Shown here: positions 19,721 through 41,872 of the stretch, one piece after another
Layout of the letters: every line of letters starts with the position of its first letter
Position numbering within the stretch: the stretch's first letter is position 1
NCBI GenBank assembly: GCA_001662655.1
Contig: KV460211.1
Origin: Pseudogymnoascus verrucosus
Lineage: Eukaryota
Length of the DNA stretch: 64,000 bases
Strand: one strand, 5' to 3'
Notes under the pieces: generated by a model
Told to the model about the DNA's origin: nothing
What the model saw: the letters and a program-made list of their open reading frames with translations, nothing else
Databases searched by the model: none
Position numbers and translations under genes: made by a program

Positions 19721-22700
19721 GCGCTTTCACTTCACACACACACCGCCAGGCGCTGGGAATGCGGATAGGGAGGAGGGTAATCAATATACGGATTCGATAG
19801 ACGGAGCTCCTCAGCCTTACAGAAGGAGCGATAGGGATTAGAATTGGCCTGGACAGCCTTGAGCGATTTAAATTGGGCTGGGTCCGGCTCAGGCGTAGAG
19901 GTGCCTTGGAGCATATCTACAGCCACTCACACACGACTGCATCATTCACAGCGATGGATGCCTGCCTTGACGGCAACAACTACTATTATTACGATCACCA
20001 GCCACAGCGACTGGCTGGAATAGACACCACTACCACACTACACCACATCACAGACACCAATACCTCGATACCCCATTTTCGGCTTCCGGGATTCGGGATT
20101 CACACATTTTATTTTTTTACCAGCATTTGTTTGTACGCATCTGTATAACGCTGTCCACCACATATCGTATCGTTGCGGCGCGACTGTTATGTCATATATC
20201 CGAGGAGAAGGAGGGAGGGCCGCATACATATAGGCTTCTAGGCTGTGGGAATAAGCTAGTATAGGGGTGATTATTAGAAGGGAGGGACGGAGGTGGAAAG
20301 GGGCATAGATGGGAATGGGATGGGATGGGATGGGAGATATGGGAGTTATTTTTGAGCGGGATTTTTTACTTTGGGCAAGGGTGTTCTTTAATGTATGTCG
20401 TTTTTGGGGGGGGGGTTGAAAGGGGGAAGGGGATACCATGGCATATTATCATATTATACCAGGCTGCGTTAGGGGGGGGGTTATACCATACCTATTATAT
20501 CATACTGTTCATCTTCACTTCATACTCTTCTTACCTCGCCTTCTTACCACTGCCGCCCTTTTCCCATCTTGCCGCCTCTGCCCTCCTAACATACTCCCAT
20601 CCCCCTTTCCCCTTTCCACCACGAAGTATGCTCGTTTGCCCTCCCCTTCCCCTTCCCCCCGTCAACCCCCCCCCCTGTGTAACACCCACCATCTGCTTAC
20701 CAACCCTCACCACAATCTTATCCCCCCCGTACAACCACAACAACCACAGCCTCACCACCTTATCGCCTCACCTTCGTACTACCCCATCCATCCTCCCTCT
20801 CCACTCCCACAACACTCCCACACGGCGCTGACAAACCCCCCCATCCTCATGGTACGGAGATGGAGATGTATGGGGACTACAAACAGACAACCCCCCCCCC
20901 CCCTGATGGTTTCGTGATCCCCGATCTGAATCCCTCCGATAACCTGCTCGACACACACACATAGCGCGCGTGCAACGGACAATTTTCGTGGGACATCGCT
21001 TCCCCCCCCCCCCCCCCCTCCCCCCCCTCCCCCTTCAGCCCCCGTCACCCATCCACCATCGCCTACCCACGCATCTCACAACTCGCTTACCCATCCCAAA
21101 TCTAGCCCCCCCCCCCCCGGCTCCCTAAGAAAAACGCAGTGAAACCCGCCATCCCTCCTCAGTCAGTGGTACGAGCCAGTAACCTCATCGTCGGAGTACG
21201 GGGGGGCATTGCGCCGGGATGGCTGGGAAGGGCAAGACGGGCGTAGGCGGGGAGCCGTGTGGCGTTTTCCTGTGGCTCTCCTCGTTTTCGTTGCCGGGGG
21301 AGGGAGGGGCGGGCTTACGATTTCGGGAATCGCGAATGGACGCGAGGGGGGGAGGAGAGGGCGTGTCGGGCAAGCATGGGATAGGGATGGGTGATCGGGG
21401 TGTGGTTATGGGGCGGTGGGAGGTAAGGGGGCGGGGGGAGGGGAGGGGAGGGAAGGCGGGAATGAGATCGCATGCGAGGGGGTGTGAGGATGGGCGATGA
21501 GATCGGATGTGAGGGGGGGGATGGGGATTCAGATCGGATGTGAGGGGGAGAGGTGTGTGAGATTGAGTAAGCGTGTCTTAGATTTTTCTTGTGAGATGTG
21601 TGGGGGTAGGGTGAGGGTTGTGTTTTTGAGGCTTGGGGAGGAGGCGGTGAGGGAGGGGAGGGGAGGCGGGGAGGTAGGGAGGTGGGTTGTGGGATGGGGA
21701 TGGGTATGGGATGGGATGGGATGGGAGGGGGGAGATGGCATGGATGGGATGGATGAGATGGGAAAGATGAGATTGCGGGGATCGCGGGGATCGCGGCGAT
21801 GGACGAGGTGAGGTGAGGTGAGGGAGAGACATGCGAGTCATTGGCACGTGTGTGAGTTGTGATGATATGTGATAACTGAGCCGCAGTTGCTTCCTGGCGG
21901 TTTCAGTACATAGGATCGTGAGTGAGTGAGGGTGTGAGTGAGATAGTGAGATATATATCTCAAGACAAACTGTTCCATTCCCATCACCATCACCATCACC
22001 ACATCCATCCATCCCCATCCTCCCCCCCCATCCCCCCCACACACTTATCACGGTGTTGAAAGCGCCTGAAGGGGATTAGCTCCATCGATCTCAACTTTAC
22101 GTACAGCGGCTGGAGCGACGGTAGATTCGGTAGATTCGGTAGATCCATTTATCCGATTTCCGACTTACGAAAGGGCTGTTGGTTAGGCCGACGAACGAAA
22201 CGACAGCTGATTTGTTCTGGCTGGCTGGGCCTTTTTTTTTTGCACATGAATGGAATGTATGGATGACGTTATCCGCTACTGCAGGTTGTGCGTTGACCGT
22301 TGGTGCGGTGCGGTAGCCGCTTGGACGCTGAAAGAAAAAAATAGAGAGGAAAGGGTATTGTAATTGTTAATGATTAGTGGGTGGTGGTGGGATTGGTAAG
22401 CTTGTAATATTTGAAAATCCTCTAAATACCGCACTTTACTGTAACAGACAGCAAAACCCTCAATGTAGCAGGCGGGGAGGGGAGTGTGTTTTCTTTTTGC
22501 GGGGAAAAAAGAAGGGGTCCTAGCTAGATTTCTTGGTTTTGCCTATGGATTACCAATTCTAATAAATGGCCTTTTTTTTTGAGGGAGGAGTTTCCTAATT
22601 CAAACGAACTCCCCCCGCGGTTGATTCCTTGTCGCCTTCTTATTCCCATCGGAAGTGTGCGCCAGTCGTCAACGCCAGCATATGATAAACGCCGGCAATC

Positions 22701-23097: not shown

Positions 23098-25445
23098 ATG
23101 GGCCTTCTGTGAGTTTTCTTGCGCTTTGTGGGGGGTTGTGCGGGGTGTAGTTGCGAGCGAGGGGGCAAGATGGCTGACTGTGGTGTCGATTTACAGTGCC
23201 CTGGGGACCCCGCTGGAGTGGCCCGAGGCAAAGAAGAATGCGGATCAGGTTCGCGATTGGGGGATTAAGGTATGCATCTGTCCGATTCGCGTATGAGCGA
23301 CTGGCAGCGGCTGACGAGGTGTGCAGCAATTACTAGCGATATGGAATAAGGCGAAGGGCAAAGAGCGGGATGCTCTGTTGTGGGGAGACGAGGTGGGCAT
23401 TTATACACATCTGGGATTGAGGGAGTAAGGCTGACGATGGGAAAGGTCGAATATATCGTCGTCAACTACGATGAGAACGACCCGAAGGTCACGTTGTCGT
23501 TGCGACAGGCGGATATCCTGCACTCGCTCGCCCATGACGATGAGCTGAAGGAGAAGGGCGGGTGTGTGCCTGATCTGCAGGATGTGGCTTCCGCGAAGTA
23601 AAGCTCACATTCTTTGGTGCTGGAACGGTTCTGACAAGTGGCAGCGGTGATACTCTCCCAGTTTTCCACCCCGAATTCGGCCGGTTCATGCTCGAGGCGA
23701 CACCAGGAAAGCCATGGGGAATTGGGTTCAAGGATCTCCTCGACGTGGAGCAGAACATGAAGTGGCGGTACGTTTTCACTCACTTCCAATGCCTAGGGCC
23801 CATACTGACACAAATAGGCGGAAGCTTGCCAAAGAGCACATGAAGCCCGAGGAATACCCCATGACCCTAACGACCTACCCACGCCTAGGATCCCCCGGCG
23901 TCTTCACCGACCCCTACTTCCCCCCCTCCGGCGAGAAACTCCGCTCCCAATTCGTGCCCGACGAGATCGCGAACCCGCATATCCGCTTCCCCACCCTCGC
24001 TGCCAACATCCGCTCCCGACGTGGCCGTAAGGTCCAGGTTAACGTGCCAATTTACAAAGATGTGAACACGCCCTGGCCATGGAAGGATCCGACTGTCAAC
24101 TATGACCTGCACAATTGGCCGGAGGACGACGATGTGCGTAATGGCGCGGCGCCGGATAATTTTATCCATATGGATGCGATGGCTTTTGGGATGGGCAGCT
24201 GTTGTCTGCAGATCACATTCCAGGCTAAGAATATTACTGAGGGACGGAGGATGTACGATCAATTGAGCCCTCTGGCCCCAATTTTGCTCGCCTTGACGGC
24301 TGCTACGCCGGTGTACAAGGGGTTCCTCGCCGATACCGACGTGCGCTGGAACCAGATCAGCAGAGCCGTAGACGACAGAACAGCCGAAGAACTCGGCGAG
24401 AAGGTCAGAACCCCCCATCTCTCCCAAACCCAGTAGCCCAACTAACCCCCCCTAGCCCCTCGAGCACGACCGCTGGCGCATCCCCAAATCCCGCTACGCC
24501 TCCAACTCAACCTACATCTCCAACGACTCCCGGCTGCGCAAAGAATACCTCGACCCCGACCTCGTGATCGACCCAGATATCAAACAACAACTCATGGACG
24601 GCGGCATGGACTCCCGCCTCGCCACGCACTTCGCGCACCTCTTCATCCGCGACCCCATCGTCATCTTCGCCGAGGACTTGACGACTCTCGACCTCACCAA
24701 GACCGACCACTTTGAGAACCTGCAGAGCACCAACTGGCAACACATGCGCTTCAAGCCTCCCCCTGCAGGCGTCGATATCGGATGGCGTGTCGAGTTCAGG
24801 CCAATGGAGATCCAGATCACGGATTTTGAGAACGCGGCGTTCGCGGTGTTTATTGTGCTTGTCACCCGCGCGATTCTAAGTTACGATCTTAACTTCTACA
24901 TCCCGATTCAGAAGGTTAGTGAGAACATGGAGACAGCGCATAAGCGGGATGCGGTGCTGGAGGAGAAATTCTGGTTTAGGAAAAACCCGCTCCCGACGCG
25001 GCTGCCGAGGCCTTATAACGCTGCGGGGAGCGGGGCATCTACACCTGTTATGTCGAGACCGCCTACGCCGACGGGACCGGTGGAGGATGAGTACGCGCAG
25101 ATGAGCGTCGATGAGATTGTGAATGGGAGTGCTGAGTTCCCCGGGTTGATCCCCCTGGTGGAGTCATACCTCGGCAGCGTGAATGTTGATGTTGAGACGC
25201 GCTGTGAACTACAGCGGTATTTGGATCTGATTAGGCGACGCGCGGATGGGACGCTGTGGACGGCGGCGAAGTGGATTAGGGAGTTTGTGAAGGGGCATGA
25301 GGGGTATAAGGGGGATAGTGTGGTGGGGGAGGAGATTAATCATGATTTGATTGGGGCGGTTATTGGGATTGAGAGGGATGGGGGGGAGGGGGTGGCTAAT
25401 GTGGAGAAGTTGCTGGGGAAGCAGAGGCAGAGGGGGGGACTGTGA
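23098..25445 (+). CDS. GSH1: Glutamate-cysteine ligase catalytic subunit (gamma-glutamylcysteine synthetase), multi-exon
   Basis: MGLLALGTPLEW start, LLWGDEVEY, HPEFGRFMLEATPG, IHMDAMAFGMGSCCLQITFQ, HFENLQSTNWQ, GWRVEFRPME. Confidence 0.96.
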
Positions 25446-25707
25446 TTTTGCACAGGAGATATAGTGCATACTTTTGTTTATAGAGGGAGGAGATAGGGGG
25501 AGGGGGGGACTTGGACATAAAATTACTTACTTACATAGCAGATCTCTCAGGAAGAAACTTGGGATGGGTATATAGAGCGCAGCATACGGTTAGGATATAA
25601 CAATGCGAAACATTATCCGCTTTTATTGACTTTAATATGTCTGTGATATCTATCCACCATAAGGTGTCCGTCCACCCTGTACGAGTCTAGACTGAGTCGA
25701 AAACTTC

Positions 25708-27236
25708 TGGCGCAAGATGATCCCCATTCTGCTAAAAGTGCGCCAATCCAGCAGCTGCCGCCCCTTTCCGCCTCGTAACCGTCCCTCTCTTAGTTATCTT
25801 CTTGCTTTCATAGGCTCTCATAGGCTTTTAGAAGCCCCTACATTCTTTCACAAGCTTTGCTTGTTCTCATGAACTGCTGTCGATCATCATGATTCACCGT
25901 CGCTACCGTCGACCTTCGTTAACTCCTGGAGGCTAACGGGGATTACCGTTTTTGCGCAAATCCAGCGCTATGGAGCTGGATTTGCGCAATTGCAGTGCTT
26001 ACCATAGCGGCTACTGACCTTTGCCGCCCCTCGCCTCTTGCCTCTTGCCGCTACTGCTCCCCGTAGACCACCGGCATCACTTTCCCCCGCTTTCGCGCAA
26101 ATCTGCTCCTCACTAGACAGATCTGCGCGAAACCGGCCAAAAGTGAGGCCGGTGCTCGACTAACGGGCAGGTTTGCGTACAAACATAAGCGCAGCACTAG
26201 CTGCGCCTTACATATCCCATCACACCTACTCATAGCAGTAACTAGGGCCTAGGATTGTAGGCAGACAGTTTGTCTTGCGGATGGACAATGGTAGTCAGCT
26301 TTGTTAGTAGTTTGCCCTTAGTAGGGGGCGGCAAGAGGCGGTAGGCGGAAGGTGGCGGTAGCGGCCGGTGAGGGGCGGCAAACCCCTTTTGCGCACATTC
26401 GACGCTTGTAGGCGGAATTTGCGCATAACCAAAGGCTCGGCGGCTTTGCTAGGCTTATGGCAGCTTCGCAGGGCTTCTAGCAGCAGCCCTTATGGGGCTT
26501 GCGGCAGTTTGCTACACGTACGTGCCGTAGCTTTGGTGGCCTTTTAGCTGTTTGCTACACTTGTAGCCGCCTTAGTAGTCTACTAGACTCATAGCAAGCG
26601 GCAAGCGACAGGCAGCAAGCAGCAGGCGGCAGCGGCGCTGTCGGTGAGGGGTCGGTGAGGGGCGGCAAGCCATTTGTGCGCAAATCCAAAATCTTTAAGA
26701 TGGATTTGCGCACAAATCAGTTGCCGCCCTCATCCTCACCGACCCTCACCCTCACTAACACTGTTGCTGCTGTCGCCTGTTGCTTGCTACACTTATAGCA
26801 GGTACTGCCGGCTAGTAGCAGCTTACCACACTTCGGGTAGCCAGCAGCTGGTAGCAGCAGTAGACCTCGGTGAGGGGCGGCATGCTGGTTGTGGGCAAAT
26901 TTGACCGCCTTAGGACGAATTTGCGCCAAACTGGAGCGCGGCCGCTCACAGGCCCTACGGCGGGCAGCAGTATGCAGTAGGACTTACTGCTTGCTGGTTT
27001 TATAGAGGGCTGATTAGACAGGCAGGCTAACGGTTGCTCGTGCGCCATCAGCTTGCCAACCGGCTTCGAGGCAATTGGACGTATGAGCGGTAGGGGGTAG
27101 GCGGGAAGTAGCAGGTGGAAGTGGGCAGCGGCAGGTGATAGGGGGCAGCGGCAGCAGGCTGCGGCGGCTATCGCGGTGAGAGGCGGCAAGCTGTTTTTGC
27201 GCAAATTTATCCCCTCTCCGACAGATTTGCGCAAAA
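25708..27236. repeat. Array of seven spaced palindromes GCGCA-N24-TGCGC with associated GGTGAGGGGCGGCAA motif; no convincing ORF
   Basis: Units at 25708-25745, 25952-25989, 26091-26132, 26387-26428, 26672-26717, ~26889-26930, 27195-27236; 24 nt between the cores in all seven (unit 6 left core GGGCA). Confidence 0.85.
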
Positions 27237-27747
27237 CGCAAGCGAAGCTGTTGGCTTGCTAGCCTTGCGGCGGCTTGCATGTCTTCTGCGAAAAGCTTAC
27301 CAAGGAGGTTTAGAATCGGTTTTGAACTAGTATTATGTTAGTTTGGACTCCAAATAGGGGCTGAGTAGTTCACGAGCCTGCCATAATGCACAATCTCTCT
27401 CCGAACTTTTGGGCAGCACAGTAGCTTCACAATCACCACTCAATTCAAACCAGGGGCCCATAGAAACGTACTAAATGCACTACAGCTAGCTCGCGCAAAG
27501 AGAGATTTGTAAAGTACACGAAAACTAGAGTATCCTAAGCATAAACAAGAATCGGACACACAACAAAATTACCCAGTCCTGAAGGCTCCACCAAGCGGTA
27601 AGGCCCATGAGATAAAAGATATATGGCAAAATCGACTCCCCAACTCCTTCACGTTGCTCAGAACGGCAGACGGTGCGGATCTAGGAAATAGAACGGCTCG
27701 AAAGACATGCGTACTCAACATATGAAACCCATCCTCCGTGACGTGAA

Positions 27748-30391
27748 TCACCTCAGCGCCTCATCGGCCATCATGATAGCCTCCTCCATTTTATCGCCCT
27801 CGTCCCTCTTTGCAGCCGCAGAATCAGAGTAATACCCCCCTCCATTACCACCTTCCCTTTCGGCCCCACAAAGCCTATACTCCCCATCCTCTCTCCTCTC
27901 AATAATACCCTCATCAAGCGCCCACCTCGCCAACAACTTATCAACTCCCAACCGCCCCGCCTCGCCCTTCTCCATATGCCTTCCAACGTGCTCCGTCCAG
28001 TCATCCCAGCTGCCAGTACCCTCAAACACATTACTGCAGTCAGCCTTGGGGCACGCGCTCCGCTGTGGCGGCGAGCGGCGGATCACCAGGCACGATGCCT
28101 GCATGTCTTTGACGTGCGTCTCCCACTCGACCTGGAGCTTGCTATCGCCCTTGGCCAGGGCCTTCTTGATCGCGAACGGGGCATGCATGCGCCGCAAGTG
28201 CTGGGTGAAGAGATCCTTGCGGTTGAACTCGTTTCCTTTGCCCTCGACGGTGCTTTGGGGGCAGCTAGAGCAGCGGTAGAAGGTCAGACACAGATGTTGC
28301 GAGGCGATGTGGCGCTTCCATTCGTTCTTGGAGCCGAAAGTGCTCGTGCAGCCTGCGAAGGAGAAGGCGCAGGGGAAAGGGCGCGTGTGGGCGGCGGCGA
28401 TGTGCTTCCGTAAGGAAGAAGAGTCTTTGAATGGCGCGTGGCTGCACATGTTACAGCGGGTATCTTGTTTTGGGCCGGCCTTTTGGCTTGAGCGGCGGGC
28501 CTTGGGGCGGGAGGCGGGAGAGTTGTACTCAGATGAGTAGATGTTGTCTTCCATGCCGGACTCACCACCGTCGTGGGAAGAGATGGAATGTTGTCTCGGG
28601 CTTTGGAAACTGGGAGACTCGCCGGCTGGGATATTTGACGCGCCTCTGTCCTGGCGTTTGCTGTCGTGGCTGACTGGCCGAACGTGGCTAAGCGCCTTGA
28701 GTTGTATGGCAGCCTCGTGCATCTCATCTGAATCCTCAACATGATCTTTGTGTTCAGGTATAAGGCCTGGTTCGGGCGGTGCCGACATGCTTAATGGAGG
28801 CGGCGGAGGCAGGCTATGGGGGGACTGATGTCCGTGCTGGTAGGTGATGTTGGACGACGATCCGGCCAGCGAGTCGTTCCTTGGTACGCCAGGGCTCGAT
28901 GCCGCCGCAAGTGCATCCGCTGCCTCGAGAAGAATCTTGCCATCCTCCAAATGCTTGGAAGATGCATGATTGGCGATGGCGGTAAGGTCAACAAGGCTCT
29001 GATGCTCTCTCAACAAGTTATGAGATTTGATGTATCCCAACAAAATGCACTGCTTGTCTTGCGCAATGGCATTGTAGACATCAAGGGGCATCGAAATGAG
29101 TATAACAGTCGGTGGTCCTTGGAATCTTCCTTCAACTGTAACTTTGGCCGCAGTTGCAGGCGTGCTGTTTAACCAGTGCTTGAAAGATGCCATCTCATGA
29201 TCAGGCTCGCCATGGAATAAGATGCTGACAAGGGCTCTCTGCTCTTCAAATACCATTCCTGGCCTTGATGCATCCTGTAAGGCCTGCTCTCCGTGGGTGA
29301 GCGCTTGGTGAACATCTCCATCAGCTGCGCCGGAAGGCGACGCGATATGTGGCGCCCCCATGGCAGTAGGGGGAACCGGCGTCAATAGTATTGCCCGAGA
29401 TGAGTTTGGAGTCAGCGTGAAGAATATCGGAGTCCTTTCGGACGTGCTATTTGCCTTTCCAGAGCCATTGGTAAGGCCATTATGATCCAACGATCTGTAA
29501 TGGCGCAATGACACAATTAGCTCGTCATGAAGCTGCTGGGCCGTAAATGGCGGCTCGGAGCTTAGTTTATGAAGAGCGTCGATAAGATGATAGGTAAACG
29601 AGTGTGGTCCCGGGTCTTGCTCTGCAGTATCTGGTGCAAATGCAGCAATTACTTGCTTCAATCCGTTGCTCCCACTGTCTGGTGCCTCCACGACAGCACA
29701 GCAATCGAGCAGGAGCAGAATATCGGAAGGTGCATCTTCCAAGGGGCTTTTAATGTTATCCCACTTCACCTTAGAGGAATCTTCTCTCGGATTGCTAGCA
29801 AAAGAGTCAGTTGGTTCAGTATCCGACAGTCATGATGCCATCTCACCATGCCCAATACAACTGATTATCTGTTCCTACGTAGCTGTAGCCAACATAGTAG
29901 ATGATCAGGAGGTGTCCGGGACGAGCGTATTCAACATGCTGTGCGAGTTGAATCGATAGCTTAGAGGTTGGGTTGGGGCAAGTGGGGATGCTCCACGCCT
30001 CTGTTCTATAATTGTATCGCTCACGAAACAACTTCTGGAGGGCCAAGAGGTCGTCGGCGACACTCAAGTCATCTTCCCAACGTAACAACAACACCGATGC
30101 ACTACTATATGGAAGTCTGTTGTTTTGGGTCTCTATGACGGATGCAGCACCTTGAAGTTGTCGCGCGAATCGTTCGAGGTCCGCCTGGTCGGGTGAAGGC
30201 TGAGGGGGAGGCTGAGGCGCGTCTGGGAGCGACGACGACGCCTGGTACTCAAAAAGCTGCTCATTCTGTGCCTAATGAATCAAGTTAGCCCAAGAATATC
30301 ATCACAATGCTGTCTATCTACTCACCTGGTCCTGGATTGGATTTTCAGTCACTTTCGGCGCAAGGCGCCGCTTCTTCGTGAATGGCTCCAT
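27748..30391 (-). CDS. C2H2 zinc-finger protein with N-terminal caspase-like (C14-fold-like) domain; introns 30272-30325 and 29795-29846
   Basis: Spliced ORF from MEPFTKKRRLAPK; VLLLRWEDD...LLIIYYVGY...DILLLLDCC...GPHSFT; C-terminal CNMC..H..H, FPCAFSFAGCTSTFGSKNEWKRHIASQH, FNRKDLFTQHLRRMH. Confidence 0.8.
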
Positions 30392-36923: not shown

Positions 36924-39869
36924 TCACTCCTTCTTCCCCACTTCCTCCTTCCCCTCCTCCACAGCCACCACCGCCTCCTTAACAGCCTCCAACTCCCCCA
37001 TCCGTCTAAAATACGCCTTCAGCCTCGGAAACTCATCCCCACCGCCCCTCGCAGCCACAATCGCCCTCAGCACCGGCCAAAACGCAAAATCGGCAATCGA
37101 CGGCGCTGACCCAGCTATGAACGCATCCTCAGCCGCGTACGTCTCCCATGCGTCTAGGGCGCGCGGATCGCTCTTGCGGCGCGCACCGAGGTCGAGGGCG
37201 TGATGGAGGCGCGTGAAGAGGCGAGAGTACTGGAGTGGGGTGGGTGCGGGAGAGGGCGCGGCGTAGACCATGTATAGGTACAGGAAGATGGCAGAGGGGC
37301 TCTCGATGGTAGAGCGACTGAGGTCCGTGTCGACTAACTTCATGACCGGTGCGTCTGCCGTCCCGAGACTGGGGTCGACGGGTGCGGCGATGCTGCTTGA
37401 GGTCCAGTCTAGGCCCAGTTGTGCGAGGTATGCTACGATTCCAATATCGACGGTGGGGTTGCCTGACAATAGGAGTTTGCGAGTATTGGAGATGTGGAGA
37501 GCGTCGAAACCCTGGCCGTATACCTCGGGCCAGTCGAAGTCGCTAGAGCGGTTCTCAGTCCCAAAAGCCTCGATCATCTTCTGAGCAACAGGCGTGGGTC
37601 CGTTGACAACAGGGCGCGCGTGGCGCTTGTGTTTTGCGACGGCGCCTTGACCCCAAACTTTGGCTTGGTCTTTGTCGAGGAAGGTGCCGATGAGGCGGAA
37701 GGTTAGGGAGATGCGCACGCCGCTGTACTCGAGCTCTTCGGGGGATTTGTCACGCTCGAGGCGCTTGTCTTGGCGGATGCTGTGGAGCCAGCGCATGTTG
37801 GTCATTAGGCCCATGCGGCATAGGGAGTTATGAGGTAGTGCAGCTTTGCATGTTGAACGCGGGTTTTCCTCGTCTGTTTGGAGCTGTTTTCCATCCTTTA
37901 GGATTCTCTTGGTTCTGAAAGTCATGGTGCGTTGAGCCCCGAGGCTTACATTGGCGATATAGGTGTCAGGAACGATATCTAGGGTCTTATCACTGTGCTC
38001 TGAGATGTAGTCGGTTCCGCTACGGTAAAGCTGGATCAGGCAGTGGTTGACTGGGTGACCTAGCTTCTTCTCGACTTCCCGCCGAATGACGTTTACTACG
38101 GGAGAGAATTCGAGCAGTGGCGGAGACTCATCTGCCGGGTGTCGATAGATAGGAATGCTTCCATCTTTTCCTATCTCACCCTGAACAGCGACTAGCCTCG
38201 GAACCTCCCCACCTTGGTGCGACATCCTCTGCCACTGTACCTCTGTCTTGACCCTCTCAAATATCCCTGCCTCGTCTTTACTCGGAAGCAGATCAGTTAT
38301 AATAACTGTGTCGCCCTCGCAAATCGGCTCTCCTTCTGTGGAGGTTAAAGATGATTCATCGCTGTCACTGCTCGAAGGTTGCTCATCTGCCTTCAGACCG
38401 TTCTCCTTTGCTGGTATCGGAGCTACCACGGCAGCCTTACCAGTGGGAGCAGGTGGAGAAACAATCGATTCCTTCTTACTCGGCTCATTTTCTTGGGTTC
38501 GAGGCGTCGGGGTTGGCTTCTCTGGTACTGGCGTAACGCCATTTGACTCATCTTTCGCCTTTTCCTTGCCCTTCACCGAGCTTTCCACAGGAGCCATAGT
38601 AGCGGACGGTGAGGGCGACGCTGTCCCCTTCGATTGCTTTGGATCAACTCTAGACTTGCTCTCGCCAGACTCGGGAGCCACACGGTTTGACGTACGGCGA
38701 CGAATTTTGATTTTGTTCGGAACACGGCTCTTGATAGTAGCTTCAGCTGTTGGTCGGGGTTGCGACGCCTCAGGCACCGGCGCATCCGAAGTCGTGGCTT
38801 CATTGGGTGCAGATCCATCGCGCACAGCTGAAGTTTGGGTATTCACATCCTTCTGAACAGCCTTTCCGGGGACGGGCTCCGCGATTGAAGCTGCTTTCGG
38901 ATCACTTTTCAGCTTCAACTTTTCCAGCATCTGGTTAATATTTTCGCTGTCCGGGTTTTGACGTACCGGCCTTTTCGATGCCGTCTTTTCAACTTTAGAC
39001 GATTGCTTGGGCTTCTTCTGAATCTCTTCAATGACGTATGAGCTAGTGGACATGTCGCAGCCAGTCGCCTCGTCTAGAGACCGTAGAGCTTGGTCATGTC
39101 TGGCCTTGCTTCGGTAGCCCAGGCAGTCGTCGACAAGAGTAATTGCGTATCCGTAACGTGCGGCGTCCATTGCCGTTGCGAACACGCTCATATTTGTCAG
39201 AGCTCCGCATATGAAAATCTCCGTGACAAACTGGCTCCTCAGAGTCTGTAGCAATGGACTCGATTTGAACGCAGAGTAGTACGACTTCGTGAAGAACATG
39301 TCCTTGGATTGGTCCACCACAGCTTCCAAAGCAGGTACCAGACCAGAATCGGATGCCCTGCCCTTGAGCGACATGTGTTCCTTCCCAGGCTCCAAAGACA
39401 GGAAAGCCTCGCTTTCTTCCACCGGCTCCTCTGGCTCATCGGGTGTAGTTTTATCATCCACCTCAATCGGCCCTGCTCCTTCCAAATCGGCCGACCCAGA
39501 AGATTCCGCAGAAGCTTCAGTAGCAAGCTTCTCCATCATCGCTTGTAATTTTTTGGAACCTCGTAATGAGTGTCTGGAGGGAGATGGCTTCGGAGGGCGC
39601 ATCACGACCTCGTCGTCGGTGATAACATTTTCGCATCGACTTGTGCCATCATTTATACGACGGGCTTGCTCGAATTCGCTTTTGACCCAAATGACTGTAC
39701 CGGATTGTCGGAAAACGGGGATCAGTTTCGCTACATGGTCGGCGAGATTTGGTGGTAGTTCGACGGGTGTTATCCCTCCGGGTGCAACGAGGTTCTTTTG
39801 GAGGTCGAGGACGAGTAGCGCCCGCCGTGTGCGCACGAACGGCACGTCGCCCTCATTGATCTTAAACAT
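36924..39869 (-). CDS. Fusion: isochorismatase-like hydrolase + AlkB-type 2OG-Fe(II) dioxygenase + GST C-terminal-like domain
   Basis: ALLVLDLQ, KSYYSAF, ICGALTNMSVFATA; NHCLIQLYRSGTDYISEHSDKTLD, WLHSI, RISLTFR; FIAGSAPSIADF...FPRLKAYFRRM. Confidence 0.85.
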   Translation of the reverse strand: MFKINEGDVPFVRTRRALLVLDLQKNLVAPGGITPVELPPNLADHVAKLIPVFRQSGTVIWVKSEFEQARRINDGTSRCENVITDDEVVMRPPKPSPSRHSLRGSKKLQAMMEKLATEASAESSGSADLEGAGPIEVDDKTTPDEPEEPVEESEAFLSLEPGKEHMSLKGRASDSGLVPALEAVVDQSKDMFFTKSYYSAFKSSPLLQTLRSQFVTEIFICGALTNMSVFATAMDAARYGYAITLVDDCLGYRSKARHDQALRSLDEATGCDMSTSSYVIEEIQKKPKQSSKVEKTASKRPVRQNPDSENINQMLEKLKLKSDPKAASIAEPVPGKAVQKDVNTQTSAVRDGSAPNEATTSDAPVPEASQPRPTAEATIKSRVPNKIKIRRRTSNRVAPESGESKSRVDPKQSKGTASPSPSATMAPVESSVKGKEKAKDESNGVTPVPEKPTPTPRTQENEPSKKESIVSPPAPTGKAAVVAPIPAKENGLKADEQPSSSDSDESSLTSTEGEPICEGDTVIITDLLPSKDEAGIFERVKTEVQWQRMSHQGGEVPRLVAVQGEIGKDGSIPIYRHPADESPPLLEFSPVVNVIRREVEKKLGHPVNHCLIQLYRSGTDYISEHSDKTLDIVPDTYIANVSLGAQRTMTFRTKRILKDGKQLQTDEENPRSTCKAALPHNSLCRMGLMTNMRWLHSIRQDKRLERDKSPEELEYSGVRISLTFRLIGTFLDKDQAKVWGQGAVAKHKRHARPVVNGPTPVAQKMIEAFGTENRSSDFDWPEVYGQGFDALHISNTRKLLLSGNPTVDIGIVAYLAQLGLDWTSSSIAAPVDPSLGTADAPVMKLVDTDLSRSTIESPSAIFLYLYMVYAAPSPAPTPLQYSRLFTRLHHALDLGARRKSDPRALDAWETYAAEDAFIAGSAPSIADFAFWPVLRAIVAARGGGDEFPRLKAYFRRMGELEAVKEAVVAVEEGKEEVGKKE

Positions 39870-41872
39870 ATCGTCGTGCTACTTCATGCGCACGCACGAT
39901 CAACTCCCCCTCGGATTGTATATAGCTGAAGAATGTGTTTTGGTTGGTGGAGTGGTTCGAGAATGCGGTCTGGAGGTTGGCCAACAATGGCGGGTGGGTG
40001 TCGAGTGGGCGGCGAGATCGGTATGCACTGGGGATCCTCTAGATCTGTGTTACGACAAAACTGCGAAATACAGCGGGGTTCTGCAGGTCGCCATTATATA
40101 TATATATATGTATATAGGGCGGTTAAAAGACAAAAGATCTTCCTGCGTTTCCGCGTCGGAAGTCACCCGACGTCGTGCTGTATGTAGGTAAGAGTATGTA
40201 TGATGTATGAAAATTGTTAAGTTTCGGGGTATTGAAACCATGTGGGTAGGATATTAACCAATTCCCATGTAGGGATGGGACAAATTTATTACTGCGTTTG
40301 TGCAATTCGGCCGATAGACAAGGGGTGTGCGGAGACAGATGCCTGTAAGAACGTGCGCGTAAGGATTTGGCACGTCCGGGAGTAGCTCTAGCAGCTATCT
40401 CACATATGACTCTCCTAGTATGGAAGGCGGGGAGGAGGAAGGAGACAGGGTGGAAAAGGTGGAGAGGGTATAGGGTAAAAGAGATCAGAGGGGGAAGAGC
40501 TAGAGGGTATAGAGTATATTGAGGTGCATGTTAAGTATATGCAGCACGATAATTATATGGACAATTAATCAAAGAGAGAGTAGAGAGGGTATGCGGATTG
40601 GTTGAGAGGAAAGAAATTGAGAAATTGAGGGGGAAGAGGAGAGGGGACGAGGAAGATGAGGAGAGATGGAGACGACAGGGCTGTACGGAGTATTCCGCAC
40701 AGTATGTACATTGCAGTATAGTATATAAATCTGCAGTACTCTTACTCTTCATTACATATATATATGCCTACTTTACTCTATATACAGCACAATATGCAGT
40801 AAAGTAGACTACATACGGAACACAATTGAGCGGTGACGACAGCTTGAATTAATTTATCTGGCGAACTAGCATCATGGATGCACGAGAAATAAGAAGCCGG
40901 TGCTGTACTGTGATGTGCTGTACATTAGCGGCCTGTACGATATCTTCACCAGTAAATTAGATATGGATCTGCTATATTATACATGCGTCAGAGCACACTT
41001 TACCACCACAGAGTAAGTACCATGCCGGCTTCTAACGGATGAAAAACACTCACCGCATCTATTACATTAGATTAGTGTTGGCGGATGCAGGCGCCGTAAA
41101 CGCGTGAGACCAACAGGCCATGTAGTGTGCGTCCAGCTACTCTGCCAACTCACCTACCAGAGTACGGCGCTTCTGTGACATGGACACGGTCAAGCTGCTT
41201 GAGACATGCATATGGCACACAGATCCCACTCCCATTCATTCTCAACATATTTCGTTGGCTGAGAAGATCAATAAGCAACGTTGACACCAACCCCCTCCCC
41301 TGAGAACAGACACAGAAAAGCAAACATGCCATACGCAATGTCAGACGGAGAGAGTCGATCCGCCACACAGCCTCGACAACGTGGTCCGAGAGGTCGGCCC
41401 GAGTCCACGGACTCCCGACCGCTGTCAATATCACCGTAATATTATCTGATTTTGAATATCAAACTCCCTATTGGGATACTCTCCGCCGTTCTTGGACGGC
41501 TGCATTCTCCCGGCCCTGTTACATGACCATATCTCATTTCATATTCTTCAAGGGGAAGAGTTTCTAGTTTCATCCACGAGTTTCGTACAGTAAGCAGTTC
41601 GGCATGAGCGTTGGAAGATGAAGCACCACCTATAATACGCATATTAATTAACGGCCGTAGTCACGTGCTGTTCATCCAGCAACGCCCCGCCAACGTGCTA
41701 CCCAAACGTGCCGAGGCATGATCACAAATTCTGGGGTAGCTTCATGATAGCCTTGGGCCATTTATGTGTACCGGTTGAAAAACCCGAACACATTCATTAT
41801 ATCTTTATGTACTAATTACCATTCTATTCTTTACTCTCTTCGAATATCCATAATCCCCATAATACCGCCGCC

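Follow-up and report, generated by a model that had tools for sequence, protein, structure and literature searches.

The question raised by this locus is why a series of palindromes with the same internal geometry should lie side by side in one intergenic space, and whether they are separate sites or parts of something larger. In what follows, the window is the whole stretch of DNA that was analysed, 64,000 bases in length. The pattern GCGCA-N24-TGCGC occurs in it exactly six times, at 25710, 25954, 26095, 26391, 26678 and 27199, compared to 0.08 occurrences expected, and none of 100 shuffles reached six. A seventh dyad (unit 6, at 26893) has one mismatch, reading GGGCA in its left core. The dyads span 25710–27232 and are found nowhere else in the 64 kb. 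The sequence-only reading had described seven dyads with exactly 24 nt between the cores; this is correct for six, while unit 6 departs by one core base. Its centre-to-centre distances (244, 141, 296, 287, 215 and 306 bp) are accurate, the spacing is non-random compared to shuffles, and the scan for clustering that it proposed, run within the 64-kb window, placed all six exact dyads in the reported interval.

Inside the array, a GCGCA with a TGCGC no more than 60 nt downstream always has a spacing of 24 (six pairs), the sole exception being a small dyad of spacing 8 at 26189–26206. The rest of the window holds 63 GCGCA and 54 TGCGC that form merely three such pairs, with spacings of 5, 51 and 54. 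When nhmmer models of the units were run against the 64 kb, they found the array only; the remaining matches had E >0.6. The features of the locus are as follows.

23651–25445, plus strand: pieces of a glutamate-cysteine ligase (GSH1-like) ORF; Pfam GCS, E 1e-42 and 1.9e-124; 3' end towards the array.
25700–27290, no strand assigned: the complete repeat array, located in the intergenic space at the genes' 3' ends, with all dyads, flank motifs and self-matches.
25710–25743, no strand assigned: unit 1 dyad, weak, with 7-bp arms; exact pattern; fold z -1.6, equalled in 13 of 200 shuffles.
25954–25987, no strand assigned: unit 2 dyad; perfect 15-nt arms at 25952–25966 and 25975–25989; -19.6 kcal/mol, z -6.0.
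26021–26035, inverted: flank motif GGTGAGGGGCGGCAA; diverged inverted copies follow units 1, 5 and 6 on the right.
26060–26167, no strand assigned: unit 3 long hairpin with dyad core 26095–26128; arms of 43 nt, 81% complementary.
26189–26206, no strand assigned: small spacing-8 dyad adjoining a degenerate single box at 26172–26183; weak nhmmer match nearby, E 2.8–4.8.
26367–26381, plus strand: flank motif GGTGAGGGGCGGCAA; further plus-strand copies at 26654–26668, 26869–26883 and 27175–27189, with 0–1 mismatch.
26391–26424, no strand assigned: unit 4 dyad; exact pattern; -13.5 kcal/mol, z -4.35.
26582, no strand assigned: secondary centre of symmetry, flanked by units 4 and 5 and scoring above 99.9% of 1500 control positions.
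26592–26790, no strand assigned: unit 5 long foldback of ~200 nt; dyad core 26678–26711 with a 17-bp perfect stem.
~26804: secondary centre of symmetry, flanked by units 5 and 6 and likewise above the 99.9th percentile; an inverted self-match, 26649–26955, is centred at ~26802.
26893–26926, no strand assigned: unit 6 dyad with left core GGGCA; z -3.0; symmetry peak at ~26907–26911.
27199–27232, no strand assigned: unit 7 dyad; exact pattern; z -3.5.
27748–29829, minus strand: 693-aa ORF with C2H2-like Cys/His spacing, from the ORF listing; 3' end towards the array.

The array had been placed between convergent GSH1 and C2H2 genes. Pfam GCS confirms the first; the 693-aa ORF matched no Pfam family at E ≤0.001 and is zinc-finger-like by eye only. 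Between the dyads there are no ORFs except for two minus-strand frames, stop-to-stop and of low complexity.

Six of the seven units fold at z -3.0 to -8.2, unit 1 (z -1.6) being the exception. Unit 1 is an array member by its exact pattern match, while its 7-bp arms and a fold no better than that of 13 of 200 shuffles make it a weak one. The largest structures are in units 3 and 5. A 114-nt segment around unit 3 folds at -34.7 kcal/mol (z -8.6), with a symmetry peak at 26110 and a hairpin of ~105 nt. The fold of a 231-nt segment around unit 5 reaches -81.4 kcal/mol (z -12.1), the symmetry peak at 26695 is the highest of the array, and an inverted self-match over 26614–26788 is 72% identical across 191 columns.

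The arms that had been quoted for individual units (perfect 15-nt arms in unit 2, a 17-bp stem in unit 5, compensating outer changes in units 1 and 3) were all correct, and the outer changes in units 1 and 3 are G/C and C/G pairs. Covariation of the arms over the seven units exceeds chance, as previously suggested: 14 cells are changed on both sides, compared to 6.7 ± 2.3 in shuffles (0/500). The covariation score is 0.246, compared to 0.156 after shuffling (1/500), and sliding the register always lowered it, to 0.035–0.108. Inner arm positions co-vary too. Four of the five GCGCA:TGCGC pairs are invariant across units, and the fifth is broken in unit 6 only.

Each arm carries a 10-base self-palindromic box, TTTGCGCAAA, so that every hairpin tip has two boxes with their centres 30 bp apart. 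A G-rich arm lies ahead of the boxes; where a unit is better preserved, the reverse complement of this arm lies behind them. Identity between units is 78% in the box columns, compared to 39% in the inner 18 nt (the loops) and 34% in the outer flanks. Non-Watson-Crick cells number 34 of 133, and among them 5 G.T and 5 A.C favour neither strand. The conservation of the boxes over loops and flanks, together with the absence of an RNA-strand bias, makes the constraint on the array look DNA-level and sequence-specific. Outside the array, the 64-kb window contains no exact box, and one-mismatch boxes number 1, compared to 3.2 expected for the whole window. Since the box is absent from the rest of this gene-dense 64 kb, it is not a commonly used promoter motif here. 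The self-palindromic arms are more than a hairpin alone needs. The inner 8 bases of the box, a perfect palindrome, equal the optimal C/EBP-type bZIP site.

Self-comparison indicates that the units share a common ancestry. Units 4–7 form a gap-free family of 71 nt (D1) whose members are 68–75% alike, and in this register the flank motif GGTGAGGGGCGGCAA stands at a constant distance from the dyad. Direct self-matching blocks of 99–172 columns are 66–72% alike, and units 3, 5 and 6 lie at the centres of inverted self-matches. The central sequences had been described as all different. They retain a residual homology of 39–41% in one polarity over the seven units, compared to 30% when reverse-complemented, and the all-plus orientation was the best of 64 sets tried. 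Homologous units thus lie head to tail in one polarity, as in a tandem repeat. Symmetry centres at 26582, 26695, 26804 and ~26909 follow one another every 105–113 nt, and all of them exceed 99.9% of the 1500 control positions. This alternation points to tandem foldback (long-palindrome) units with dyads 141–306 bp apart. Long self-folding inverted arms are present in units 3 and 5, and weakly in unit 6, while units 2, 4 and 7 have short arms at the 100-nt scale. The array is also rich in simple G-rich and C-rich sub-repeats. Tandem Repeats Finder, run on the window, reported small sub-repeats only and not the array, because its units are less than 70% alike. Judged by these comparisons, the dyads are not independent sites but tips of one diverged, locally amplified repeat. 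The small dyad at 26189–26206 is possibly a collapsed unit.

An array at the same site was found in three related organisms (X4, X5 and X8) and in a near-identical metagenome run (X3, at least 99% alike, with the short form over 26460–27164). This shared position also fits a host function. Unit number differs among the related organisms, as it does in tandem repeats. The interval measures 2965 nt in X5 and 2983 nt in X8, compared to 2101 in the window; the additional ~860–880 nt contain extra units, and in both organisms a unit-6-like block occurs a second time and there are additional unit-7-like pieces. The earlier statement that a plain satellite would not look like this is therefore too strong, as the array consists of tandem long imperfect palindromes whose number changes among relatives.

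The comparison with the relatives comprised 172 rows of differences, of which 40 were used. The blocks of X5 and X8 that align at 80% or more contain the dyads. The spacers at 26481–26572 and 26730–26845 are unaligned in both, as are, past unit 6, 26950–27001 in X8 and 26950–27093 in X5. The segment 26730–26845 is the outer right arm of unit 5, and the long hairpin of this unit is not kept in these two organisms. This fits a recent outward extension of unit 5 in the lineage of the window. Unit 1 has a spacer longer by 2 nt behind 25721 in X5, and its region is replaced or unalignable in X4 and X8. At position 26894, the base that breaks the left core of unit 6, contigs of all four compared runs have C. 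A second, 77-nt copy of the 26894 block in X5 shows 0 differences from the window and presumably has G, as in the window. The loose ends of X4 carry three variant dyads, one of them also in X8, and all are N24 by hand count (12+12, 15+9 and 5+19). X4 and X8 each have a second contig with a unit-3-like dyad, which may be an allele or another locus.

No cognate enzyme had been seen in the window, and Pfam supports this: among 29 ORFs (28 of the 52 with at least 180 aa, and one of 142 aa) there was no transposase, recombinase, integrase or Rep. We know of no RAYT-like enzyme for arrays of this kind. A DNA-level site for a dimeric protein and a non-autonomous repeat are both live readings. Rfam, searched at E up to 1, gave nine matches, all far below gathering scores; a tRNA search found 0 genes. 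The best was MIR1437 at unit 5, on both strands, with 49.5 and 46.6 bits compared to a gathering score of 168; the same MIR model on both strands is what any long palindrome would give.

A metagenome scan with an 18-base-specified twin-box pattern found none of this family among the 124 distinct matches listed. Of the matches listed, at least 83 are copies of a single high-copy repeat in an animal-like genome of ~40% GC, at least 11 lie in contigs of >60% GC within an apparently conserved bacterial coding stretch, and many of the remaining ones (at least 30) are by eye the same 40% GC repeat. Only one of the matches listed has the fungal flank motif nearby, on a contig of 64% GC. Pfam searches of ORFs near the 40% GC repeat (10 of the 18 with at least 220 aa; the 8 from a bacterial-looking contig, L023, were left out) tied no transposase to the repeat; the families matched were reverse transcriptase, integrase core and 'rolling stone'. 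A literature search with motif and general terms returned no account of an array like this one from the nuclear DNA of fungi.

Overall, the array looks like a foldback-type repeat and not like a new kind of genetic system. The explanation that we tentatively prefer, giving it somewhat less than an even chance, is a foldback-type repeat whose twin boxes bind a putative dimeric protein and whose symmetry is kept or extended by hairpin-templated copying. The seven dyads would be the hairpin tips of one lineage-specific non-coding repeat, amplified in place, and unequal recombination among its units would lengthen and shorten the array. Template switching in the course of replication or repair would restore the symmetry of the arms and, as in units 3 and 5, sometimes extend it outward. 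Recognition of each box by a dimeric sequence-specific DNA-binding protein would hold the boxes and their spacing constant, with two dimers per dyad, three helical turns apart. This protein may be a factor of the host or the enzyme that mobilises a parent mobile element, and no current benefit to the host would be needed.

Template switching is reported to homogenise and expand the arms of inverted repeats and to fix the pairing of existing stems (PMC13100816, PMC8794818, PMC8604942). Copying templated by a hairpin would likewise produce 'compensatory' changes without selection on each pair. Arm covariation had been taken as a sign of selection on symmetry; alone it is insufficient, because template switching reportedly fixes stem pairing without selection (PMC8794818, PMC13100816). 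Homogenisation within a unit cannot keep boxes alike between units, so selection or a binding protein would be needed as well. By eye, the unit 3 and unit 5 hairpins and the edges of the array showed neither target-site duplications nor clear ends of an element. Spacer inversion, the hallmark of one kind of template switching, is not visible in the loops. The 64 kb contain no further copies of the units, and a mobile origin is therefore no more than putative.

Several of these observations can be accounted for in other ways. Somewhat unlikely, in our view, is a host cis-acting platform, in which the paired boxes would be selected as predicted sites for a dimeric protein (bZIP-like or other) with two dimers per dyad and ~7–10 dyads. 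The array would then enhance or silence expression, form a boundary between the two convergent genes, or serve as a site of replication or cohesin loading, and its repeat structure would be no more than the route by which the sites multiplied. Such a platform would explain why the array occupies the same intergenic site in X3, X4, X5 and X8, why dyads fall inside the aligning blocks (80% or more) of X5 and X8 while several spacers are unaligned, and why the boxes are 78% conserved compared to 34–39% around them. The spacing, constant in six of the seven window units and in the three variant units of X4, agrees with it, as do the form of the box (a 10-base self-palindrome with a conserved core, as expected of a dimeric site) and the optimal C/EBP-type bZIP site formed by its inner 8 bases. 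However, the rest of the 64 kb lacks the box (1 one-mismatch match outside the array, compared to 3.2 expected for the whole window), unit number and content vary among close relatives, unit 1 is decaying, and unit 6 has a box-breaking G. Covariation of the inner arms would also be superfluous for a protein that binds the boxes. It would be explained if hairpin or cruciform extrusion were part of the mechanism, as in a related and distinctly unlikely proposal: a conserved chromosomal element of the fungal lineage in which the twin boxes nucleate a tetramer (dimer of dimers) of a putative DNA-binding protein, forming a boundary, replication origin or fork-pausing platform. Extrusion would account for the covariation of arm positions outside the boxes.

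A transcribed hairpin cluster, expressed by read-through or from its own promoter and yielding small RNAs through Dicer/RNase III or acting in fail-safe termination, appears improbable. The fold energies of six of the seven units (z -3.0 to -8.2), the ~105- and ~200-nt hairpins of units 3 and 5, and the sub-threshold resemblance of unit 5 to models of long plant MIR hairpins on both strands (49.5/46.6 bits compared to 168) would suit it, and conserved arms with variable loops are the pattern of paralogous hairpin RNA clusters. Against this, wobble pairs (5 compared to 5) show no strand bias of the kind expected from pairing in one strand, the self-palindromic arms are left unexplained, all nine Rfam matches are far below gathering scores with the best two from the same model on both strands, and the long hairpin of unit 5 is lost in X5 and X8. 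We also see little chance for a neutral palindromic minisatellite, young and fast-evolving, whose stems would mutate more slowly or repair each other and whose boxes would have no binding partner. The G-rich and C-rich sub-repeats and the changing unit number are in keeping with it, and template switching can create and maintain stems, as one study reports (PMC8794818). Yet repair between arms cannot keep the boxes of seven units alike while loops and flanks approach saturation, nor does neutrality sit well with a spacer of constant length despite 60% loop divergence. Very improbable is the earlier suggestion that the dyads delimit cassettes as site-specific recombination sites (integron-attC-like, or a recombinase core), which has in its favour only the dyad form and the variable centres. 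The dyads are parts of one repeat unit, the inter-dyad segments of 107–272 nt are that same repeat and contain no ORF cassettes, and there is no integrase or recombinase among the 29 ORFs scanned with Pfam. Known tyrosine-recombinase cores have spacers of 6–8 bp, not 18–24.

Four further candidates were rejected. A mitochondrial GC-cluster or double-hairpin element is excluded by the nuclear context; the stems and loops are too long for Helitron ends; E2F, MCB/SCB and MSE-type sites match only partially; and concatemer junctions of a hairpin-ended replicon do not fit an arm of only ~107 nt.

The array resembles several known systems in part. With the C/EBP-type bZIP site it shares the inner 8 box bases, a perfect palindrome of that form; in contrast, the box motif is confined to the array within the window, and no fungal factor of that specificity was identified. 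To our knowledge, a paired 30-bp geometry is no feature of C/EBP-type bZIP sites. Foldback elements and MITE-derived tandem arrays of eukaryotes (cf. PMC4168063 and PMC8268682) are likewise non-coding, long, imperfect palindromes in tandem, with variable unit number and no enzyme nearby. Unlike in that class, the best-conserved part of the array is the hairpin tip with two fixed-spacing boxes and not the ends, no TIR with target-site duplications was seen by eye, and there are no dispersed copies within the 64 kb. Bacterial REP/BIME clusters and REPINs are also clustered, short, imperfect extragenic palindromes at 3' ends; their stems are conserved, their loops vary and their arms alternate in orientation (PMC3116915, PMC3184786). 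However, those are bacterial and mobilised by RAYT, whereas this array is eukaryotic and nuclear, with far longer units and no such enzyme found, so the likeness is an analogy only. In yeast, homogenisation of inverted repeats by template switching is reported at dimeric transcription-factor sites, and, as proposed here, arms are made perfect, extended outward and made to mimic compensatory change (PMC13100816, PMC8794818, PMC8604942). The yeast cases are single loci with spacer inversion, whereas the array has 7–10 units and no inversion was seen.

If the foldback-type reading is true, this locus would show cleanly, in the natural setting of a fungus's nuclear DNA, how a palindromic repeat is multiplied, cut back and held symmetric. 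The array also cautions that selection on structure is not proved by covariation and constant spacing alone. A constant 10-base self-palindrome with a 24-nt spacer, in diverging surroundings and at the same site in several relatives, points to a putative sequence-specific DNA-binding protein, either one of the host's own or the enzyme of a mobile element that has not been described. The differences in unit number may serve as a strain or species marker.

Scanning the 64-kb window for GCGCA-N24-TGCGC returned six matches, at 25710, 25954, 26095, 26391, 26678 and 27199, where 0.08 were expected, and none of 100 dinucleotide-preserving shuffles reached six. Together with a seventh unit at 26893 that is one letter off (GGGCA), this confirms the seven-dyad pattern described in the sequence-only reading as real and non-random; the arms and centre-to-centre distances quoted there are also correct. 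Within the array (units 1–7, ~25700–27290), GCGCA followed by TGCGC within 60 nt always has a spacing of 24, with the sole exception of 26189–26206 (spacing 8). In the remaining 62 kb, 63 GCGCA and 54 TGCGC form just three such pairs, with unrelated spacings. The 10-mer TTGCGCAAAT, allowing at most one mismatch, has 15 matches (3.2 expected), 14 of them inside the array, and searches with a unit profile found no further copy within the window. The small GCGCA-N8-TGCGC dyad comes after a lone degenerate box that has a 2-nt insert (26172–26183); together (26172–26206) they may be a collapsed eighth unit located between units 3 and 4.

The array is located between the 3' ends of two genes:

3' end at 25445, + strand, glutamate-cysteine ligase gene (Pfam GCS), 3' end facing the array
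27748–29829, - strand, 693-aa ORF with C2H2-like spacing by eye, 3' end facing the array

The second had been named a C2H2 gene. Zinc-finger-like Cys/His spacing is visible only by eye; neither this ORF nor the one directly upstream (29843–30271, - strand) matched a Pfam family at E ≤0.001. The gene content of the window is that of ordinary fungal housekeeping genes. Consistent with the earlier statement that no cognate enzyme is encoded here, the 29 ORFs scanned with Pfam (28 of the 52 of at least 180 aa and one of 142 aa, ORFs overlapping a longer one being omitted) yielded no transposase, recombinase or Rep. Elsewhere in the window, a 984-aa ORF (36924–39878, - strand) combines isochorismatase, 2OG-Fe(II) oxygenase, thioredoxin-like and GST C-terminal domains in a single frame, an unusual fusion. 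A long low-complexity stretch (20000–22100) has stop-free frames on both strands, encoding runs rich in proline, serine and histidine, or in glycine.

Similarity between units extends beyond the dyads. Units 4–7 form a 71-nt family (gap-free alignment, 68–75% identity) that opens with the motif GGTGAGGGGCGGCAA, whose distance to the dyad is constant, and the reverse complement of GGTGAGGGGCGGCAA comes after units 1, 2, 5 and, in degenerate form, 6. Sensitive self-comparison detected direct matches of 99–172 columns between unit blocks (66–72%), as well as inverted matches with their centres in unit 3 (99 columns, 77%), in unit 5 (191 columns, 72%), in unit 6 and, in one case, between units 5 and 6. 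A ~200-nt hairpin (-81.4 kcal/mol, z -12.1) has unit 5 at its tip, and a ~105-nt hairpin (z -8.6) has unit 3 there. A scan with 100-nt arms gave symmetry peaks at 26110, 26582, 26695, 26804 and ~26909, all above the 99.9th percentile of 1500 control positions, and in the best-kept part of the array arm and reverse complement alternate every 105–113 nt. The loops share 39–41% identity in the same polarity versus 30% when reverse-complemented, with all-plus the best of 64 orientation sets; they are diverged yet homologous. The shared motif, self-matches, hairpins, symmetry peaks and loop polarity show that the array consists of long imperfect palindromes, or foldback units, arranged head to tail, with the reported dyads at their tips. 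The gap-free family, the block matches and the one-polarity loops show that the dyads are not independent sites.

Covariation was measured by pairing each column with its mirror column across the seven 56-nt units (19 pairs). Standard pairs make up 78% of cells. As had been claimed, the arms covary beyond shuffles: 14 cells are altered on both sides (6.7 ± 2.3 in shuffles, with 0 of 500 reaching 14), and the score of 0.246 (0.156 in shuffles; reached in 1 of 500) drops to 0.035–0.108 under any slid register. Arms within a unit are therefore more alike than arms of different units. When the units are folded as single-stranded DNA, all but unit 1 beat nearly all shuffles (z -3.0 to -8.2); unit 1 (z -1.6) is equalled by 13 of 200. 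The non-Watson-Crick cells (5 G.T, 5 A.C and 24 others) do not indicate an RNA strand. The only Rfam hits were sub-threshold ones, on both strands of unit 5, to models of long plant miRNA hairpins, and a tRNA search found none. Despite the stable folds, we think it improbable that the array encodes hairpin RNAs.

Between-unit identity is 78% in box columns, 39% in the inner 18 nt and 34% in the outer flanks. Four of the five GCGCA:TGCGC pairs are invariant, and the fifth is disrupted in unit 6 alone. Every arm contains a 10-base self-palindrome, a property that roughly one in a thousand random 10-mers would have by chance. Hairpin formation does not need self-palindromic arms, and a self-palindrome is the usual mark of a dimeric DNA-binding protein site. 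Because arm-from-arm repair cannot hold different units alike, the boxes and the constant spacer need selection or a recognition requirement, and we give a purely neutral repeat little chance. The positions that covary lie immediately inside and outside the boxes. For such positions a neutral route is documented, as template switching can generate perfect stems, keep them perfect and lengthen inverted repeats (PMC8794818, PMC13100816, PMC8604942). Outward extension of this kind fits the long, lineage-specific arms of unit 5. Comparison of loop orientation in the seven units showed no spacer inversion, a hallmark of one kind of template switching. The sequence-only reading overstates independence and novelty, since the dyads all cap a single amplified foldback repeat and covariation does not require selection; it is partly right, in that the symmetry is at the DNA level and a dimeric binding partner is likely.

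Contigs of four public sequencing runs (X4, X5 and X8 from related organisms, and X3, a near-identical metagenome run) were aligned on 25400–27500 at a likeness of at least 80%. With a likeness of at least 99%, X3 shows the window's form of the array in the part covered. The interval, 2101 nt in the window, is 2965 nt in X5 (one 13.5-kb contig) and 2983 nt in X8 (one 3.2-kb contig); in both, the unit-6 block is present twice, plus extra unit-7-like pieces. X4 is fragmented and otherwise similar. The aligning stretches include the dyads. Spacers 26481–26572 and 26730–26845, the latter including the outer arm on the right side of unit 5's hairpin, do not align in X5 or X8, nor does the stretch from 26950 (up to 27001 in X8 and 27093 in X5). 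Loose ends in X4 carry three variant dyads, one also in X8, with a core gap again of 24 (12+12, 15+9, 5+19; counted by hand). In X5 the spacer of unit 1 carries a 2-nt insertion, and in X4 and X8 this unit falls in a segment that has been replaced; unit 1 is a decaying member of the array. All four runs have contigs with C at position 26894, which gives the canonical core. X5's second unit-6 copy shows no differences from the window and presumably carries G there. Among the 40 differences listed (of 172), position 26129, adjoining unit 3's core on the right, is G in the window, pairing with a left-arm C, and A in X4, X5 and X8. The left arm of unit 5 contains an 11-nt stretch duplicated exactly in tandem (26640–26662); X4 and X5 are without 11 nt at 26640, so the duplication is recent in the window's lineage.

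We located no description of the array in the literature by motif sequence, and its family was absent from the at least 124 distinct metagenome matches to the twin-box pattern (loci L001–L126). Most of the listed matches belong to an unrelated high-copy, non-autonomous repeat of a ~40% GC, animal-like genome (most of L002–L126, e.g. L007 3280, 4228). It has three to four TGCGCA/TGCGCG boxes in ~60 nt near one end, two at 30-bp spacing as in the array, and inverted-orientation pairs ~940 nt apart; Pfam on 10 of the 18 nearby ORFs of at least 220 aa gave no transposase tied to it. In loci with GC >0.6 (L001, L010, L019, L021, L040, L072 and others) the pattern falls within an apparently conserved bacterial protein-coding stretch, and these matches are due to chance, through codon conservation. 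An unrelated contig (L028 3560–4186, GC 0.49) contains a 176-nt tandem repeat (3.4 copies, 79% matches) whose palindromic units of G-run, TGCGCA boxes and C-run resemble unit 5 in architecture but differ in spacing. Eukaryotic foldback or MITE-derived tandem arrays are the closest kinds, and bacterial REP/BIME clusters are alike by analogy only. We class the array with foldback-type tandem repeats and not with MITEs, the hallmarks of which are target-site duplications, dispersed copies and an autonomous partner; inspection by eye showed no target-site duplication at the ends of the array or of the unit-3 and unit-5 hairpins. An integron-like cassette reading fails, with no cassettes between the dyads and no enzyme among the ORFs scanned. 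A recombinase-site reading fails on that same lack of an enzyme and on a spacer that is too long, and we find recombination sites hardly credible.

A cis-element of the host would also fit the conserved boxes and the dyads retained in relatives; we regard it as rather unlikely. The reading we favour, tentatively and at somewhat under even confidence, is a foldback-repeat array whose boxes are putatively recognised by a protein.
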